Shown piece after piece: positions 9,043 through 47,111 of a stretch of 64,000 nt of DNA. This DNA comes from Nitrosopumilus sp. (GTDB lineage: Archaea; Thermoproteota; Nitrososphaeria; Nitrososphaerales; Nitrosopumilaceae): assembly GCA_965206745.1 (NCBI GenBank), contig OZ242220.1, positions 900,434 to 964,433 on the forward strand. Direction: 5' to 3'. The notes beneath the pieces are model-generated. The model was not told where the DNA came from and ran no database searches. It was given only the letters and a program-made list of their open reading frames with translations. Each line of letters opens with the position of its first letter. The stretch's first letter is position 1. Made by a program: the position numbers and the translations under genes.

Positions 9043-9403
9043 TTTGATGAGTCACAAATAGAAGACCGTTATTCAAAAGATTTTTTTGGAATCAGATTAA
9101 ATGATAATCCCTGGTTCAATTAAGAGCCGGTGATGACTTGATACGTGGTGAACGTATCATTTCACCGCCAATCCAGTTAAAAGATGAATTTTTGACACAC
9201 TAGGATAAATTTACAAGTTTCTCATTTGTAAAAATTTTGAATTCAAAGATCTGTATTTGCTGCTAAACGCACAGTAACTTGATACTCTGGAGAAGGCCTT
9301 TGAATCAGAGCAAGAATTCGTATTTCACGTCTATATCCACAAGATTACACAGAACCTCCAACAGTATGGTTTTTCTTCTAGTGTATCAGTGACATGTTGT
9401 GGA
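9043..9403 (+). pseudogene. Probable decayed hypothetical gene
   Basis: Protein-like segments in different frames (RAGDDLIRGERIISPPIQLKDEFLTH*; FEFKDLYLLLNAQ*LDTLEKAFESEQEFVFHVYIHKITQNLQQY) broken by stops and frameshifts. Confidence 0.35.
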
Positions 9404-9617
9404 TGAGCAAGAGCAGATAATGGATGATCTACTTAATGTTGATCTTGAGATAATTGATGTTGTTAGGCAACTGCGTCAGAAGGATTGGGATTCTGAATCC
9501 CTGAAGCAACATATTGGAGACTTGCTGAAAATTCGTGATGAAATGGTGCCACAGTTGCTGTCTTTAAAAGGAGATGAGAATTCCTGTGATTCCGGTCATG
9601 ACCATACACATCAATAA
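9399..9617 (+). CDS. Small acidic coiled-coil hypothetical protein with His-rich tail
   Basis: 72-aa GTG-start ORF ending GHDHTHQ. Confidence 0.65.
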   Translation: MDEQEQIMDDLLNVDLEIIDVVRQLRQKDWDSESLKQHIGDLLKIRDEMVPQLLSLKGDENSCDSGHDHTHQ

Positions 9618-9826
9618 TCAAAGCCTAGTTCTTTAAAAAAATTATCTGGAAACTTCTTTTTGATCTTTAGAATTTCTGCCTTGTAGTTTTGAATCTTTGA
9701 TTGAACCTCTTCTCTCTCTTTGCCTTCAAGCACACCACAGTCTTTTTCCAACCTCTTAATCTGATTTGTTAATGTCTTGTACATTATTGAAAATTCTGGA
9801 AAATTTTCTGGAAGTTCTTCACCCAT
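9611..9826 (-). CDS. Hypothetical protein
   Basis: 71-aa ATG ORF. Confidence 0.7.
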   Translation of the reverse strand: MGEELPENFPEFSIMYKTLTNQIKRLEKDCGVLEGKEREEVQSKIQNYKAEILKIKKKFPDNFFKELGFDY

Positions 9827-10098
9827 ATCTGATCAGACACACATTTTGCCAATACTTTATCGTTTCATTTTATTCATGCAACTTGCAAGTTCTTGCATGA
9901 TTTTTGATACATGACATCCTAATCCAAAATATCACTGCAAAAAATCACATCTAAACATTGTTAATTCGACAGAATAAGATCGCCTGCATTTTAGGAAAAT
10001 CTCAAAATCTTATATTCATTTTGCACTAGAGCCAGGAAACTAAATTCAGAAATGATTGCTTCGAATTGCTTTAATACTTTTAATTTGATGAATTTGCA

Positions 10099-12273
10099 GT
10101 GGCTAGAAATGCAATGTTGGCACTCTTTACAGTGCTACTCATAGGAATGATGGTTGCCCCTGCGTATGCCGAGTTGTCGCCACGGGAACAACTCAAAATC
10201 GGCATCCCGATAAACCAAATTCTATGCAATGAGGAAAAGACCCTCATACAGTCACCTACAGGCAAGCCTGCCTGCGTCTTTGATGCCACTTTGGAAAGAC
10301 TTGTTCTACGGGGATGGATCATTGTGGAATTGGTTACACCGATTGTTGATTTTCAAGGGATAATAGATGCCACAGAACCAGCACCTGAACCAACACCAGC
10401 ACCTGAACCAACACCAGCACCTGAACCAACACCAGCACCTGAACCAACACCAGCACCTGAACCAACACCAGCACCTGAACCAACACCAGCACCTGAACCA
10501 ACACCAGCACCTGAACCAACACCAGCACCTGAACCAACACCAGCACCTGAACCAACACCAGCACCTGAACCAACACCAGCACCTGAACCAACACCGGCAC
10601 CTGAACCAACACCGGCACCTGAACCAACACCGGCACCTGAACCAACACCGGCACCTGAACCAGCACCTGAACCAGCACCTGAACCAACACCCGCACCCGA
10701 GCCTGAAATAATTTATTCTGATGACGGATATACTGCAAATCTATACCATGAAAACGGAATTCTCAAATCAGAAAAACAGTATGAGAACGGACAACTAGAA
10801 ACAGAATTATTATACCATGAAAACGGAGATCTCAAATCAGAAAAACACTATGAGGACGGACAGCTAGAATCAGAAATACAGTATGATGAAGACATGAATC
10901 GCAAATCACAAAAATATTATGAGGACGGACAACTAGATGAAGGAACACACTTTGAATACCATGAAAATGGAAATAAACAATCAGAAGTGCAACTTGGTAA
11001 AAATGGAAATTTGAAATTAGAATTAAAATATTTTAAAAATGGAAATCAGCAATTAGTATACAAATATGATGAAAATGGTGTGCTGATAGAAATGTCGCAA
11101 TTTTACAAAAACGGAAATTCTAAATTAACAGAATATTATAACGACGGACAGCTAGAAGTAGAAATACGATACAATGAAAATGGATATATGAACTCTGAAT
11201 TTGATTATTATGAGGACGGACAGCTAGAAAATGAATCATACTATGAATACTATGAAAACGGAAATTTCAAATTAGGAAAAGACTATGAAGATGGGCAACT
11301 TGCAGGTGAAACACATTACTATGAAAACACCAATCTCAAATCAGATAAACAGTATCAAGATGGGCAACCTGATTCAGATATAGAATACTATGAAAACGGA
11401 AATTTCAAATCAGAAAAATACTATGAGAATGGACAACTAGTAGGAGAACGTCACCGTTACAAAAACGGAAATATGGAATTTGAATCCAAATATTATGAGA
11501 ACGGACAAACAAAAGTTGAATCTCTATACCGTGAAAACGGAAATGGTATATCAGACAAATATTATGATGAGAACGGACAGATAATAGACGAAACATATTA
11601 TGAGTATTATGAAAACGGGAATAAACAATCAAAACTTCAATATTATGGTAACGGAGAACTAAAAGCCGAATATCAGCATTATGAAAACGGAAATAAACGA
11701 TCAGAATTACACCACTATGAAAATAACATGATAAAACAAGAATTGCAATTTTATGAAAATAAAAACATGCAATCAAAAAAATCTTACTATGAGAACGGAC
11801 AACTGAAATCAGAATATCAATACCATGAAAACGGAAATCTCAAATTACACAAAATTTACTCAGAGCACGGAAAACCTGGCTATACGGAATACAATAAAAA
11901 CGGAGATCTCAAATTAAAAAAACATTATTCTTATGTGGACGGACAATACATAGTATACAGAGAAGTATCCTATGAATACCACGAAAACGGAGATCTCAAA
12001 TCAAAAAAATATTATCTCACTGGAAAACTAATATCTGAGTCATACTATGAATACCATGAAAACAGAAATCTCAAATCCCAAAAACACTATGAGAACGGCC
12101 AACTAAAATCAGAATATCAATACCATGAAAACGGAAATCCCAAATCAGAAAAATATTATTGGAACGGACAACTATCCGAAGAAGTATACTATGAATACCA
12201 CGAAAATGGAGATACCAAATCAGTAAAACGCTATAAGAACGGACAAGAAGTGCCATACATTACATTCGGTTAA
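10099..12273 (+). CDS. Secreted MORN_2/YwqK-like repeat protein with Cys-motif N-domain and Pro-rich stalk
   Basis: Signal peptide (…MVAPAYA|EL), SPREQ..C..PACV..RGW module, (PAPEPT)n linker, then ~520 aa of Y(H/Y)ENGxxKSExxYxxGQL repeats. Confidence 0.85.
10378..10707 (+). repeat. 18-bp coding minisatellite (PAPEPT)
   Basis: Unit ccagcacctgaaccaaca x12, then ccg-variant units, then a degenerate PAPE tail. Confidence 0.97.
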
Positions 12274-12603
12274 TTAGAATAAGAATGACAATGCCACAAA
12301 AACAGAGATTTTGAATCTGTAAAATAATATGATTAGAACGAGAACTTGAAAACAGACTAGAATTTGCATGCATGAATTTGACAAAAATAGGACCGGGGTT
12401 CCAAAATCACTCTGGCCTGCTCACCCGCTGTACCTGCCTGGTTAATTAAAACATGCTTCATAATTCGGCAAATTCATCATCTATCAGTTATAGCTTAGAA
12501 TGTTGATTAATCATCAGCAAACTTCCTTCTAATTGCCACGGTATATTATTATTTCATATGGACGACCATAACCTTTTTGATGTGACCTGGCACTAATTAT
12601 GGT

Positions 12604-12855
12604 ATGGTCAATTTTGAAAAGGTCTATCAAAGAGTCGCCTCCCAAATAATTCAGAGGTGTCACGGTGCAATCAAAATTACCAAGCATGGGAGAATTATTG
12701 AGGTCTATGATACAAAGCGGCATATCTGGAGCGATGGCCTGGCAGGGCTAATAATCAAGGAGGAGTGCCGAAATGCTGATCTGAAGGAATGGGAGTTTGC
12801 AAGTGTCAGGACATGTGTAATCAAAGAGTTACTTGGAAAAAACAATGATCAATAG
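12604..12855 (+). CDS. Hypothetical protein (thaumarchaeal type)
   Basis: 83-aa ATG ORF. Confidence 0.75.
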   Translation: MVNFEKVYQRVASQIIQRCHGAIKITKHGRIIEVYDTKRHIWSDGLAGLIIKEECRNADLKEWEFASVRTCVIKELLGKNNDQ

Positions 12856-13124
12856 CACACTTTTCTGATCAAGTACGGCTCTTTTAGCATGATTGTATCG
12901 TCTCTGGTTGATGACAGATCCACTGTTTTGAGGTTGTGGTTTGTAACTATTGTTAGTGCCTCGCATCTAGAACACAGTACTGTCCTTCCATTTGAACGGC
13001 CCTCCCTGATGATGTCTCTTTCCAGCCTGTCTTCTTTTTGGCATGTGGGGCACAGTCTTGGTTCACTTTCAATTGTGATTATCTCCTTGATGAAGATCGT
13101 CCTTCCCATACTGCCCATCTTCAA
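12849..13124 (-). CDS. Small zinc-ribbon protein
   Basis: CPTC...CSRC motifs. Confidence 0.7.
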   Translation of the reverse strand: MKMGSMGRTIFIKEIITIESEPRLCPTCQKEDRLERDIIREGRSNGRTVLCSRCEALTIVTNHNLKTVDLSSTRDDTIMLKEPYLIRKVCY

Positions 13125-22993: not shown

Positions 22994-23044
22994 ACTCAGC
23001 TCCTTTGAGCTTTAATTAAATATGGTCTGAAATGCTGAGTGTTT

Positions 23045-23323
23045 ATGCAGGCTATGTGGAATGAGGTTGTAATTGCACAAAGTGATGATACCGTCGTGGT
23101 GGATGGCAACCATTACTTTCCATCTGATTCACTAAAGCAGCAGTACTTTAAGAAATCCCCCCTGACCAGCGTATGCGGGTGGAAGGGAAAGGCAAACTAT
23201 TACTCTGTGGATGTAAATGGCAAAGTCAACAAGGACTGTGCATGGTACTATACCGAGCCCAACGATGCTGCCCTCAAAATTAAAGGAATGGTGGCATTTT
23301 GGAATGGCATTACAATCAGCTGA
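23045..23323 (+). CDS. DUF427 family protein
   Basis: MQAMWNEVVIAQSD...GNHYFP...C.WKG.ANYY...AWYY. Confidence 0.88.
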   Translation: MQAMWNEVVIAQSDDTVVVDGNHYFPSDSLKQQYFKKSPLTSVCGWKGKANYYSVDVNGKVNKDCAWYYTEPNDAALKIKGMVAFWNGITIS

Positions 23324-23334
23324 TTTTGACACTG

Positions 23335-24189
23335 TTAAATCAAACACATGCCATGTTCATCTCGTACAGCTTGATCAGGACACTTGGTTTGAGTATTTTC
23401 TATGTTGCTAGGTTCACTGGTACCTCCGTTTGTTATGACTTGAACAGAATACGAATATTCTGTATCTGGCTCTAGACCTGTTACTGCATATGACGTATCT
23501 GTAGTTGTATCTAGTATTGTGTCCGGTATGCCGTGTGGCGTATGAAATGAAATATCATAATCTGGCAGGATTCCTCCATTAAGGTTTGGCTGTGTCCATG
23601 AAAGCATCACCGAAGTGCTGTTCTCACTTGATATTTTCAAGTCATCAATGGGTTCAGAAGGGGTAGAAAATGTATTGGAGGACAATGGAATTACAAAAAA
23701 CGATTCATGCACTTTATCCGTAATCGTATGATTGCCAATTTGTTTTGATGCAGTTAATGAAATTACATATTGACCAATTTTGGAATTATCCTGGAAATAA
23801 TATGTGTCCATAAAATATCCGTTACTGGAGGTATTTTCAGTAAAATTATGAATCAAAACATGTCCCTTTTTTATCTTGCCTGTGATTGTGGCATTGGTAA
23901 TTTTCCCGTCATTGAAATAATAGTCCCCTCGTGTATTAATTTCAGGATCAAACAGATAGCCAGAAACAACGAAATTATGCTTCCATTGCACAAAATGAGG
24001 TTTTTTAATTACGAGATCAATTTGGGGTTCCTTATCAACTGTAACTGTCTCTATGATTTTTGAGCGTTTATCTGGAGATGCGTTTCTGTTATCCCAATAC
24101 GCCTCCAAAATTGCCTTGGATTCATCACTGAGAGCATGAACGGAGATTGGCACTAGCATCAATGCAAACACCAGCAATAGTATCTTCAT
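23335..24189 (-). CDS. Secreted protein with C-terminal fibronectin type III domain
   Basis: Signal peptide; TSVMLSWTQP...YAVTGLEPDTEYSYSVQ FN3 motif; C-terminal Cys pair. Confidence 0.85.
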   Translation of the reverse strand: MKILLLVFALMLVPISVHALSDESKAILEAYWDNRNASPDKRSKIIETVTVDKEPQIDLVIKKPHFVQWKHNFVVSGYLFDPEINTRGDYYFNDGKITNATITGKIKKGHVLIHNFTENTSSNGYFMDTYYFQDNSKIGQYVISLTASKQIGNHTITDKVHESFFVIPLSSNTFSTPSEPIDDLKISSENSTSVMLSWTQPNLNGGILPDYDISFHTPHGIPDTILDTTTDTSYAVTGLEPDTEYSYSVQVITNGGTSEPSNIENTQTKCPDQAVRDEHGMCLI

Positions 24190-24379
24190 AACGATTCAAA
24201 CAAAAGAATCCATTTAACCTTTTATCAAGAAACTGAACGAGCCCAACCAAAAAACTAGGCATGCAAATATTCTAAACAATATTGATTCGTGCCTAACCAA
24301 GATAATCTCATACGAATCCAGAGTCTGTCTCCAACGACTAGACGCATCAGAATAAAATATAGTAATTCTTTTAAGAAAT

Positions 24380-25717
24380 TTGACTCCTCGAAATTCATTG
24401 AACAAGGTTATTCTGTCAATGCTGGCATTGACTTTGGTTATTACATTGGGTCTGGGATCATCTTATGCTCAAGATGATTATGTATACCATGATGAAAATG
24501 GGAATAAACAACCAAAAGTTTTCTATTATAATAATGGACAGCAGCAATCGGAATTCCACTATGATGAGGGCGGATTGCTGGAACAAGAAACACGATTTTC
24601 TGAAGATGGAAGTATACGCTCACATACCTTTTATGACCATAACGGTTATCCGAATGAACAAATATCCTATGAATATCATGAAAACGGAAATCTCAAATCA
24701 GAAAAACACCATGAAAATGATCATCTGGAAGAAGAAATACTCTACCATGAAAACGGTCAACGTAAATCAGAAAAATACTATGAAAGCGGACAACTAGATC
24801 AAGAAATATACTATGAATACTATGAAAACGATAAAATCAAATCAGAAAAATATTATAAAAACGGAGAACTAAAATCAGAATCAAGTTATCATGAAAACGG
24901 GCATCTGGAGCTATATTTGCAATATGATGAAAACAAAAATGTGCAATCAGAAGGCACCTATGATGAAAACGGACAACTAGAAGATGAGACACGCTTTGAA
25001 TATTACAAAAATGGAAGTCAGAAATCACTAAAAGAATATGACGATGGGCAATTAGAGTTGGAAACACAATTTTACAAAAATGGACATTTCAAATCTACAA
25101 AAAAATACACTAACGGACAACTAGAAACAGAATGGCAGCGACATGAAAACGGAGATTTAGAATCAAGATCAGACTATCATGAAAATGGAAATAAACAATC
25201 ATTCACAATATTCAAAAACGGACAACCGAAATCTGAGATTCGTTACGATGAAAATGGGAATTACAACTTGTACCGATTGCATCGTGCTGACGGTTCATTA
25301 AAATCTGAAAGCCATTATCATGAAAATGGAAAATTAAAATTAGAAATAATCTATTATGAGAACGAACTACCACAATCTGAATTTAGTTATTTCTACGATG
25401 GACTAATAAAATCAAAAGTCACTTATTTCGAAAACGGACAACTAAATACACTGTTGCAATATAATGATATGGGGTTTATACTGGGGTTAAAACCACTAGC
25501 GTTTAAACAACTGGAAATTAGTTATTATGAGAATGGACCACTACGATCCGTAACCCATTGGCATGAATATAACATGTTAAAATCAAGAACGTACTATGAT
25601 GAAACTGGCGTATTGAGCGCAGTAATATTATATAATCAAATGGGACACGTACAATCCAAATTCTATAATGATGAAAATGAGGAGTCAAAAAAGAATATGA
25701 CTGGAACGGACAGCTAA
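24380..25717 (+). CDS. Secreted MORN_2/YwqK-like repeat protein
   Basis: Signal peptide (…GLGSSYA|QDD), then YHENGxxKSExxY repeats; probable 2-nt insertion at 25679-25680. Confidence 0.85.
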   Translation: MTPRNSLNKVILSMLALTLVITLGLGSSYAQDDYVYHDENGNKQPKVFYYNNGQQQSEFHYDEGGLLEQETRFSEDGSIRSHTFYDHNGYPNEQISYEYHENGNLKSEKHHENDHLEEEILYHENGQRKSEKYYESGQLDQEIYYEYYENDKIKSEKYYKNGELKSESSYHENGHLELYLQYDENKNVQSEGTYDENGQLEDETRFEYYKNGSQKSLKEYDDGQLELETQFYKNGHFKSTKKYTNGQLETEWQRHENGDLESRSDYHENGNKQSFTIFKNGQPKSEIRYDENGNYNLYRLHRADGSLKSESHYHENGKLKLEIIYYENELPQSEFSYFYDGLIKSKVTYFENGQLNTLLQYNDMGFILGLKPLAFKQLEISYYENGPLRSVTHWHEYNMLKSRTYYDETGVLSAVILYNQMGHVQSKFYNDENEESKKNMTGTDS

Positions 25718-25988
25718 AATGAGATTTTAAATCCATGGCCTCTCTTTTCATTTCAAATCAATACTTGGGTTTGGCCATTTAATCACAGTTTGGCTGGTGC
25801 GCCCTTACCGGATGCAGTGTGATGTGGCCCTCCTAGACTTGGATATTTTTAGTCTTCACCAAAGTCACCATCGTAGCATTCGATGAAATCAAAGTCATAA
25901 TATTTCATAATATCATTAGATTTTATCACGACATAGGTGTTGGGTGTATGAATATCGTCTTCCTCTGATGCCTATATAGGCCGTGTAA

Positions 25989-26201
25989 TTAGTTGGCAGA
26001 TTCGCCTTGATCAACATCTCTGTTGTACTCATCGACATCTTGATTGTATCTGTCAATCTCCTGGTTCTCCTCATCGACGTCTCCTTCAAACAGTTCGGGA
26101 TGTTTCTCTTGTGCCTTTCTCATTAACTTCTTGAATGTGTCAGGATCGTCTTTCTGCAGTTCCAGCAGTATCTTACCAATGGAATCATCAAGATTGCTCA
26201 T
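25989..26201 (-). CDS. Small acidic hypothetical protein
   Basis: 70-aa ORF with an ATGA overlap to the upstream ORF. Confidence 0.55.
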   Translation of the reverse strand: MSNLDDSIGKILLELQKDDPDTFKKLMRKAQEKHPELFEGDVDEENQEIDRYNQDVDEYNRDVDQGESAN

Positions 26202-26554
26202 ATTGCATTACCTGCCATGCCGTCATTTGTACCAAAATCACTATTTGACCTGACATCATCTTCTAAAACGACAATACTGTCTGTACTTTGTGTTGTGTTA
26301 TTATCGATAAAATACCTGTATCTGTCAACTCGAATTATTTGAAGATCCCTGCCGTTGATTGTGGCATTGGATTGGCCTTGGACAATACCTGTAACGCCTA
26401 TCCCAGAATCCACAATATTTTGTAGCCCTGATGTGTACCTATCAAATTGAGTGCCTTCTAGAACAGGGGGATTGCAACGTGTAGCATGAACATCTAAGAT
26501 GGCAAATAACCCTAATGACGATACTCCAAGTGATGGCATATTTATCCTTGGCAT
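26198..26554 (-). CDS. Orphan hypothetical protein
   Basis: 118-aa ATG ORF; TATA-like tttatgca/tttaaa upstream on the minus strand. Confidence 0.5.
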   Translation of the reverse strand: MPRINMPSLGVSSLGLFAILDVHATRCNPPVLEGTQFDRYTSGLQNIVDSGIGVTGIVQGQSNATINGRDLQIIRVDRYRYFIDNNTTQSTDSIVVLEDDVRSNSDFGTNDGMAGNAI

Positions 26555-26982
26555 TCCTACGCATTTGCATAAAAGTACAAACTCATTTAAAGATAATCAT
26601 CAAATACTCTGCCACTCCCATGAATCTGCACACTTGATCAAATTGCCATCTTTAGTCAGAAAACGCAAATCATAGACATCTCCCAAGAAATCAAGAATCT
26701 GAGTTGTTCCCATTTGCAATATGACGTATTCCAGATAATCCTCATTACTTTGTAGGATGTCATAAGAGACATTGACGTGATGAATGCTGATTCTGCCTCA
26801 TCAGGATCTCCCTCAACTCGAATTTTTCTGACACATCACCCACTTGGCCTATCAAGGCCTATGGGCCAAACCTGCAAAGATTATCCCAAGAGATCTCCTT
26901 GGTTGATCCCGTATGCCTTTTTGAGAAAATTTCATCACAATAGCCCTAGGAGTTAAATTATATCAAAATCAGGCATAATTGT

Positions 26983-46028: not shown

Positions 46029-47111
46029 TTATCGAGCCCAACCACGTTCTATTAGTTTTTGAACGCTGGATGCTTTAACACAAGCTGGCTCACCGGATAT
46101 TTTGAAAATTAACTCCCTTGCTGCTTTACAATGAATATTTTCAGGTTCAACCCCTTCTTGGATTTGTTTTAATGGTGATAATAGTGTCTTGTCCATTTTT
46201 TCTCCATCGACCATTACTGCATCATCTCCATCGACCATTACTGCATCATCTCCATCGACCATTACTGCATCATCTCCATCGACCATTACTGCATCATCTC
46301 CATCGACCATTACTGCATCATCTCCATCGACCATTACTGCATCATCTCCATCGACCATTACTGCATCCATACTATCTGATGTGTCATTTCCAAAAACTTC
46401 ATTCATGTGTTTTGATTCAACTCCACTGACAATTTCAAATTCTATTATTGCCTCATTTACCATCATTGCCACTTGTTCTGGGGTCTCTTTTTGATCATAT
46501 GCTTTCAAAATTTGCACATATGCATCACTGATTTTTTCTGAATCCTCAACATCTGCTTTTATCTCTTCGAAGATCTGCTGTGATCTCCAAATGAATGCTG
46601 AACCATCTTGAAATTCTGCCATCTCTACAATCAAACCTCCCTCAACTGCTTCTTTGTATTCCACTTTGGATGTTTCAAGCAAATCGTTGATTAATTGTGC
46701 TTTAAATGCTGAATCATTACTTAATTCATTTCCAACCACAATCTCTCTTGCTTGTTCAATAATTTCTTTGGCCTTGTCAATTGCTAACTGGGCCTCTTCT
46801 CTACCGACCTCTGTATTTGCCATGTTTTTTAATTCCAATAATGTTTTCTTTAGTTCTTCATTAAATTCTGGGTTGTCATCTAAATGCATACTCATTGTTT
46901 CATACAATTCTGATATTGGATGAGTTGAATGTATCAGTGCCAGTTCTGAATTGCCTTCATCCAGATTCTTCTCTAATGCCTGAAAATGCCCTAGTGTCTC
47001 CTCAAGAGCCCCTGCAAATTCTAATTTTGCATCCATTTGACTATCTGCAAAAGACAATGGTGCAGATGCCAGAATAATTGCAGATAAAATTCCTAATACT
47101 ATCGTTTTCAT
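46029..47111 (-). CDS. Secreted acidic helical protein with (DDAVMVDG)7 linker and C-terminal Cys/RGW module
   Basis: Signal peptide; HF...HSTHP..E, EY.EA..E..DG motifs; ends SPLKQ..C..PACV..RGWAR. Confidence 0.85.
   Translation of the reverse strand: MKTIVLGILSAIILASAPLSFADSQMDAKLEFAGALEETLGHFQALEKNLDEGNSELALIHSTHPISELYETMSMHLDDNPEFNEELKKTLLELKNMANTEVGREEAQLAIDKAKEIIEQAREIVVGNELSNDSAFKAQLINDLLETSKVEYKEAVEGGLIVEMAEFQDGSAFIWRSQQIFEEIKADVEDSEKISDAYVQILKAYDQKETPEQVAMMVNEAIIEFEIVSGVESKHMNEVFGNDTSDSMDAVMVDGDDAVMVDGDDAVMVDGDDAVMVDGDDAVMVDGDDAVMVDGDDAVMVDGEKMDKTLLSPLKQIQEGVEPENIHCKAARELIFKISGEPACVKASSVQKLIERGWAR
46201..46367 (-). repeat. 24-bp coding minisatellite x7
   Basis: Unit tctccatcgaccattactgcatca at 46201+24n. 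Confidence 0.97.

Follow-up and report, generated by a model that had tools for sequence, protein, structure and literature searches.

What does an ammonia-oxidising archaeon gain from a long array of tandem repeats encoded amid its purine-biosynthesis genes? The question is raised by a 64,000-nt stretch of Nitrosopumilus sp. DNA (assembly GCA_965206745.1, contig OZ242220.1, positions 900,434 to 964,433 of the forward strand), here called the window, which covers a purine-biosynthesis region (purP, purQ, purL, purF and purC) and contains, at 10099–12273 on the + strand, an open reading frame (ORF) of 724 aa with a GTG start. With a probability of roughly 0.55, the gene encodes an exported head–stalk–ribbon binding protein, adhesin-like in design. 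The protein has a layout of three parts, namely a WING-49 head, a Pro/Thr stalk and a MORN_2 ribbon. A first-pass annotation of the window had described an exported MORN_2 scaffold. This description stands, but it had missed the stretch of 180 aa (aa 25–205) that separates the signal peptide from the repeats and contains the WING-49 module and the Pro/Thr stalk.

Export signal and repeat array

The signal peptide was assessed by rule (n-region, Kyte–Doolittle hydropathy and cleavage motif) and is accordingly a prediction. A Sec-type signal is predicted at aa 1–24 (10099–10170, +), with Arg3 in a basic n-region, a hydrophobic core with a Kyte–Doolittle value of 2.6 and an A-x-A motif before the predicted cut, which falls between AYA and E. 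This N-terminus is conserved in a family of paralogues (P0001–P0011) and in the homologue P0233, both described below. The mature chain of 700 aa has a computed mass of 81 kDa, a pI of 4.7 and a net charge of about −61. A TATA-like box, TTTAATAC, is located at 10070–10077 (+), which puts it 30 to 23 nt before the start codon. A paralogue detected in run X1 as a loose end at 10100 has a different upstream sequence, yet it carries TTTAATAC at an equal distance, and the box is probably the promoter of a leaderless mRNA. Scans for bacterial promoters and terminators and a search of Rfam gave no relevant match.

The repeats occupy aa 206–724 (10714–12270, +) and were delimited by Pfam, by a parse of the units and by an AlphaFold2 (AF2) model. 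These 519 aa consist of 43 very regular half-units of 11–12 aa each (about 21.5 MORN_2 repeats), in which the patterns xYHENGxLKSE and KxYE(N/D)GQLExEx alternate. The composition is dominated by Tyr (14.6%), Glu (14.0%), Asn (10.6%), Lys (10.0%) and Gly (9.0%). The signal peptide followed by about 520 aa of repeats and the affiliation with MORN_2, both noted in the first-pass annotation, are therefore borne out. The Pfam MORN_2 model (PF07661) scores 72.4 bits vs. a gathering cutoff of 29.6, with eight separately significant stretches, and both the parse and the AF2 prediction give tandem units of about 22–23 aa arranged as beta-hairpins. The RHS_repeat family was not matched in the Pfam scan. 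The product ends in a MORN unit, with no extra C-terminal domain.

The AF2 model, calculated from an alignment of 37 sequences, folds the repeats into about 42 antiparallel strands of 6–8 residues joined by short turns, with a mean predicted confidence (pLDDT) of 86.8 and a single low-confidence break. As modelled, the region is a single continuous antiparallel beta-meander. Strands in a beta-sheet are spaced 0.48 nm apart, which would give a ribbon of 42 strands a length of about 20 nm; an extended stalk would be about as long or longer.

A single-sequence search of the PDB with the protein gave no match. Profile searches, on the other hand, found the N-terminal MORN domain of SET7/9 (3e-8), engineered single-layer sheets of OspA (3e-7) and the Rhs chain 7q97 (3e-5). 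Foldseek returned strong local matches of the model to the shells of Rhs, teneurin and Tc toxins (E from 1e-17 to 1e-11) and to OspA. The model suggests that the principle of the beta-hairpin ribbon is common to the Rhs, teneurin and OspA matches, while the global fold is not. A continuous antiparallel ribbon of this kind is also what likens the array to the MORN domain of SET7/9 and to OspA (TMq of 0.27 to engineered OspA). However, SET7/9 is intracellular and OspA is a lipoprotein, both are far shorter than the present array, and the models cannot be superposed globally.

WING-49 module and Pro/Thr stalk

The module at aa 28–74 (10180–10320, +) matches NCBIfam NF058652 (WING-49) over model positions 1–48 of 49, with 52.2 bits vs. 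a curated cutoff of 22 and an E-value of 4.7e-14. It carries two invariant cysteines, and the Cys pair together with the C-terminal RGW motif is (near-)invariant in the two alignments inspected (A1 and A3) and occurs in the present protein as well. AF2 predicts a helix, a beta-hairpin and a second helix (pLDDT 87.5). The distribution of the module was surveyed with a profile built from five copies and an exhaustive HMMER search, which collected 3,761 representative clusters at E ≤ 1e-3. Of the best 150 matches, 44 carry the module at the N-terminus, 49 in the interior and 27 at the C-terminus, and in 30 it stands alone; a hydrophobic N-terminus is present in 104 of the 139 representatives that start with Met. 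The two cysteines are invariant in 99 WING-49 proteins, which is consistent with an extracytoplasmic disulfide.

The same 99 members were scanned for partner domains. Serpin, Kazal, MG2, PKD, laminin-G, BNR, beta-propeller, plastocyanin, RHS and MORN_2 domains were found, all of them extracellular types; in about three quarters of the members, Pfam recognises no domain at all. The sole named member is a sialidase-family protein of Nitrosopumilus, and a literature search for "WING-49" found no publication. With the WING-49 proteins of Nitrosopumilaceae, such as secreted serpins and the sialidase-family protein, the present protein shares a module of about 50 aa with two cysteines, export and the use of interchangeable extracellular passengers. 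It differs from them in its repeats, MORN_2 being found in only 2 of the 99 members, and in the long PEPTPA stalk, which is unusual beside the module.

The stalk is an acidic Pro/Thr linker of 117 aa, (PEPTPA)~18, at aa ~89–205 (10363–10713, +). The underlying DNA at 10377–10697 is a tandem array of an 18-bp unit, with 17.5 copies that are 95–100% identical. The linker varies in length among homologues and strains: a variant with a 6-nt indel occurs in runs X1 and X2, and the homologue P0233 has a single PTPEPE unit.

A second WING-49 module was found in the window at 46032–46205 (−), at the C-terminus of ORF 46029–47111 (−), with a purpose-built hidden Markov model (HMM; E = 1.4e-25 after iteration), and it aligns with the other copies in A1. 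This ORF encodes 360 aa with no Pfam domain, and so one genome uses WING-49 at either protein end.

Genomic insert and accessory status

The gene lies within a lineage-specific insert of 2.6 kb (9857–12445), which comprises the ORF with its own 5′ and 3′ flanks and interrupts an otherwise conserved spacer. A scan anchored on purP, with one genome per species, collected 80 Nitrosopumilaceae loci, in which PurP is 85–93% identical and the DNA 77–80% identical. Most of these loci have a lower GC-content (29–35%) than the locus studied here (40.4%). The order purP-o91-o83-o71-o72-BFN-TrkH is kept in about 50 of the 80 loci. None of the 80 species representatives has a MORN match at the purP locus. 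Homology with ten relatives stops at about 9856 and restarts at about 12446, and in two loci (L014 and L041) the two homology ends lie about 40 bp apart, leaving a clean empty site. Conserved single-copy orthologues were thus not seen in the relatives, in agreement with the accessory status that had been proposed for the gene. Comparison of the loci identifies the gene as a lineage-specific accessory cassette inserted into a conserved spacer.

Terminal inverted repeats, a target-site duplication, an insertion sequence (IS) element and an adjacent tRNA were sought at the insert, and none was found; the sequence thus gives no indication of insertion by an IS or an integrase. A palindrome, TCTGATCAGA, at the insert boundary was considered and rejected as not significant, as its single match was reached by 17 of 100 shuffles.

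The neighbours of the gene are small conserved ORFs, purP, BFN and TrkH, and relatives that have no insert keep the small genes. Neighbourhood annotation revealed no toxin or defence gene adjacent to it, and there was no PADLOC match; the absence of an adjacent toxin gene had been remarked on previously. The insert is flanked by four small ORFs of 72, 71, 83 and 91 aa (9399–9826 and 12604–13124), which are kept in about 50 relatives and gave no significant family match; the 91-aa product has CxxC…CxxC motifs resembling a zinc ribbon. The neighbourhood from purP to TrkH is a hotspot for lineage-specific genes, many of which encode proteins with signal peptides (ORF regions L023:11958–12350, L025:11681–12073, L045:11129–12037, L058:11144–12070, L038:16438–17430, L047:11853–16565 and L049:12071–14644). 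Examples include a 130-aa ORF with a signal peptide in the same gap between o83 and o71, proteins of 302–330 aa with a WWADG motif and ORFs of 857 and 1,570 aa.

A second lineage-specific insert was found between purF and purC (22994–26982). It contains a paralogue at 24380–25717 (+), which consists of a signal peptide and a MORN_2 array (Pfam 59.1 bits) with neither WING-49 nor a linker; the first-pass annotation had listed this gene as a paralogue, correctly. Divergent from it, a secreted fn3-domain protein is encoded at 23335–24189 (−). The spacing between purF and purC is 4.0 kb here vs. 0.4–1.1 kb in 19 relatives, in whose spacers no homologue of either the fn3 gene or the 24380 paralogue was found.

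Homologues, cassette movement and populations

When the MORN region alone was compared with 5.8 billion proteins, the best match had 28% identity, and there was no close homologue. The JGI metagenomes gave one weak match to the MORN protein. The relatives that were found are of two kinds.

In the paralogue family P0001–P0011, present in several copies per genome, a signal peptide, WING-49 and a Pro-rich linker are followed by a middle domain of about 350 unannotated residues and by a short MORN tail. It has the C-terminal MORN_2 repeats, the Pro-rich linker and the cassette of promoter, signal peptide and WING-49 in common with the present gene (72–75% aa identity). The 5′ ends of the copies in L082 show 82.6% DNA identity over this cassette, from 41 bp upstream of the start. 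Unlike these paralogues, which have about 6–8 MORN units, the 10099–12273 product has 43 half-units and no middle domain. L082:3789–14109 contains two tandem paralogues with the order WING-49, linker, unknown domain and MORN tail and, after them, an HYR/fn3 protein of more than 1,799 aa. The linkers of the two paralogues are built of other units (APLDTA, APPNTT and APPDTA), and the stalk sequence therefore evolves freely. The middle domain of P0001 (aa ~100–420; KLPDPDAVWFPM…DGWTNN) weakly resembles the C-terminal domain (aa ~390–664; E = 2e-4) of P0124, another MORN_2 protein, with a precomputed PF27244 match. Judging from this similarity, the middle domain may be one that recurs alongside MORN_2.

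One true architectural homologue was found, at L083:8001–11221 (P0233 and downstream ORFs). It has the same architecture and the same junction (…PEPEIIY.D.GY…), but it occupies another genomic locus, its linker has one PTPEPE unit vs. about 18, the MORN array runs to about 950 aa, and its repeats show about 50% aa identity to those of the window. In the assembly the homologue is split across three reading frames (L083:7817–11323), probably by long-read homopolymer errors. The homology continues into both non-coding flanks, reaching 66 bp upstream and 110 bp downstream of the window ORF, and a 111-bp piece of the window o72 gene lies just upstream of the L083 copy. The extension into the flanks, together with this fragment, indicates that the gene moved between loci as a promoter-containing cassette, and the fragment suggests that a scrap of the old flank was carried along.

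In run X1 the locus is intact, with zero differences at a depth of about 457×. Over 10168–10609 the depth of this run rises to about 8× the single-copy level at WING-49 and about 13× at the PEPTPA tract, from which it follows that the genome holds many paralogues sharing head and stalk at a DNA identity of at least 85%. In strain X3, which is about 4% diverged, contigs cross both insert boundaries, and hence the gene is at the same locus; the repeats of this copy have diverged and its 3′ end is different. In a small run, X12, taken to be RNA, contigs 1–7% diverged cover the ORF only (10747–12221), with zero depth in both flanks. This coverage gives a weak hint of a transcribed orthologue in a related strain.

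Repeat evolution and base composition

A 60-bp block recurs in the array at 11786–11845 (+) and 12086–12145 (+) with 3 mismatches. The first-pass annotation gave this pair and its coordinates correctly and read it as a recent intragenic duplication, a reading that a single pair hardly bears. The pair ranks best among 114,960 in-frame pairs of 60 nt (mean 38.8 mismatches), but it tops a continuum in which the next best pairs have 6, 8, 8, 8, 8 and 9 mismatches. Beyond the block the identity is soon lost, within about 70 nt: 73 nt contain 8 mismatches and 120 nt contain 39. Duplication of a 300-bp segment is disfavoured because 300 bp of similarity would remain, and the similarity does not span the 300-bp offset. 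Short-tract homogenisation, amplification of units or consensus-like units descending from a common founder fit the pair better. In terms of sequence, the 18-bp array of the linker is a far stronger sign of recent expansion than the 60-bp block.

The nearest neighbour of a 33-nt window lies in the same gene for 68% of windows of the 10099–12273 array and for 22% of those of the 24380 gene. Since its units are mostly closest to units of the same gene, the 10099–12273 array is the younger of the two and was amplified in place; the units of the 24380 paralogue are older and more diverged. Gene conversion between the two MORN genes, which had been put forward for checking, was rejected on the sequence comparison for the recent past. 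The best inter-gene pair of 60 nt has 11 mismatches vs. 3–9 within the gene.

The repeat DNA was noted at first pass as A-rich, and its A content is indeed 46.3% vs. 27.2% in the window. From the amino-acid composition of the repeats and the codon usage of 16 housekeeping genes of the window, 40.5% of A is expected vs. 46.2% observed. About 70% of the excess is explained by amino-acid composition, and the rest comes from third positions, where A is preferred to G. GAA makes up 84% of its codon family in the repeats vs. 47% in the housekeeping genes, AAA 98% vs. 60% and GGA 77% vs. 42%; no shift is seen in the MORN arrays for codons ending in T or C. The third-position bias is also present in the 24380 paralogue and absent from the N-terminal module. 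The GC-content at third codon positions is 0.27 in both MORN arrays, 0.07 in the linker and 0.43 in the housekeeping genes, and the AT skew is as high as +0.48 (10363–12270 and 24380–25717). Foreign origin was considered as a cause of the base composition and rejected, the bias being confined to A over G at the third position and common to both MORN genes. The A bias would rather go back to the codons of one founder unit, of which many copies were made.

Function and alternative explanations

As an adhesin-like binding protein, the chain would be exported by Sec and cleaved after AYA, and WING-49 would then fold with its disulfide. The module may dock the protein non-covalently to the envelope or to a partner, or it may merely cap the protein. 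The Pro/Thr stalk would be an extended spacer, probably O-glycosylated, and the ribbon, rich in Tyr, Glu, Lys and Asn, would offer a long multivalent surface to a polymeric or repetitive ligand, such as a host or particle matrix, another cell surface or a glycan. The array grew by amplification of units in situ, and changes in the number of repeat and linker units would tune reach and avidity among strains.

Judged by analogy, the closest described parallel is provided by the exported MORN2 proteins of Fusobacterium. In invasive Fusobacterium, 87% of these proteins have signal peptides, the family expanded by local duplication, and the proteins are predicted to be adhesins (PMC4222103). They form strain-variable, locally duplicated families with a signal peptide and long MORN_2 (PF07661) arrays (McGuire et al. 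2014, PMC4222103), and a signal peptide, an array and a variable duplicated family are likewise found for the gene described here. The Fusobacterium proteins differ in being bacterial (diderm), in occurring in dozens per genome and in having neither a WING-49 head nor a Pro/Thr stalk, and their identity to the 10099–12273 protein is a generic ~25–30%.

Several points weigh against an adhesin-like role. No hydrophobic or transmembrane anchor segment was found in the mature chain, and the product has neither a C-terminal transmembrane segment nor a sorting signal; retention at the surface would rest wholly on the putative role of WING-49. The AF2 model of WING-49 had no structural neighbour in the PDB at E < 1, and Pro-rich linkers are not general beside WING-49 among the members surveyed. 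The Foldseek template-modelling scores (TM-scores) of the repeats are only 0.08–0.27, which supports local architecture only, and that run X12 is RNA is no more than a guess. The adhesin role of the Fusobacterium proteins is itself only predicted (PMC4222103).

The missing membrane or sorting anchor would suit a soluble decoy or scavenger, released to the medium to sequester viruses, toxins, cationic peptides or metal ions. The strongly acidic chain (net charge of about −61) and the accessory, strain-variable nature of the gene point the same way. However, a stalk with a terminal module is typical of displayed rather than diffusible proteins, a released protein of 81 kDa would be costly and quickly diluted for a small open-water cell, and there were no defence-system matches, all of which makes a decoy unlikely. 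We regard as no likelier a structural component of the matrix or envelope that would act in self-aggregation or biofilm by association of MORN with MORN, with no foreign ligand. Multiple paralogues with the same head and linker in one genome, as read from the X1 depth (about 8× at WING-49 and 13× at the linker), speak for such a component, and solved eukaryotic MORN arrays form extended homodimers; nevertheless, most relatives build normal envelopes without the gene. A functionless or decaying product of runaway repeat expansion is more improbable still. The extreme repetitiveness, the strain variation and the broken frames of the L083 homologue could be taken for decay, but the ORF of 2.2 kb is intact despite many chances of slippage, identical at high depth in X1 and present at the same locus in the ~4% diverged strain, its unit pattern is regular, and the L083 breaks fit assembly errors.

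Two further readings follow from the repeats themselves and have very little in their favour. MORN_2 repeats are common to the present protein and to Bacillus subtilis YwqK, which acts by binding and confers immunity to the LXG toxin YwqJ, and many database matches bear the name "YwqK family antitoxin". The analogy with YwqK drawn in the first-pass annotation nevertheless extends to repeat chemistry alone. YwqK is small, cytoplasmic and adjoins its toxin gene, whereas the 724-aa product has a predicted Sec signal, a head and a stalk; its gene adjoins small genes that are also kept by relatives with no insert, and not an LXG, Rhs or other toxin gene. An immunity protein neutralising a polymorphic toxin is therefore effectively refuted. 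A shell of the Rhs/YD type or a polymorphic toxin carrier is just as improbable. The Foldseek E-values for Rhs, teneurin and Tc-toxin shells (1e-17 to 1e-11) and the profile match to 7q97 (3e-5) recall such proteins, but the TM-scores of 0.08–0.16 and root-mean-square deviations above 40 Å give no closed shell, the array of about 520 aa is too short for one, and both a C-terminal toxin domain and the Rhs core motif are absent.

A comparison can also be drawn with sponge-associated Thaumarchaeota, which encode eukaryotic-like repeat proteins with TPR, HYR, Ig-like and fn3 domains (Moeller et al. 2019, PMC6790972). The likeness consists in accessory secreted repeat proteins in ammonia-oxidising archaea, with an fn3 gene beside the 24380 paralogue and an HYR/fn3 giant beside related genes; MORN_2, however, is not among the types reported there (PMC6790972). 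The HYR/fn3 giants beside the paralogues are only a hint of host association.

Implications

Exported MORN_2 proteins are a kind already known in general, and what is new here is the combination with a WING-49 head of archaeal type and a Pro/Thr stalk. Of the leads that the gene offers, the uncharacterised WING-49 module is worth most, more than the repeats. Tentatively, and with the odds against it, WING-49 may be a docking module specific to Nitrosopumilaceae, comparable to S-layer homology (SLH) domains or dockerins, which plugs interchangeable secreted passengers (serpins, Kazal inhibitors, plastocyanins and MORN ribbons) onto the S-layer or a common receptor. The 10099–12273 protein might then be an adhesin for hosts or particles, from a lineage of higher GC that is possibly associated with animals; its gene would have arisen when an amplified MORN array was joined to the shared cassette of promoter, signal peptide and WING-49, and would then have moved between loci as a cassette. 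If WING-49 proves to be a tethering module, this would explain the display of many archaeal exoproteins.

Ammonia-oxidising archaea are among the most abundant microbes of the sea, and their attachment to particles, hosts and each other is little understood. With this gene there is a testable case of a fast-evolving, accessory repeat protein of these organisms that is secreted or at the surface, and the locus shows how such genes spread, as promoter-containing cassettes placed in spacers of a conserved purine-biosynthesis region and growing by amplification of repeat and linker units.

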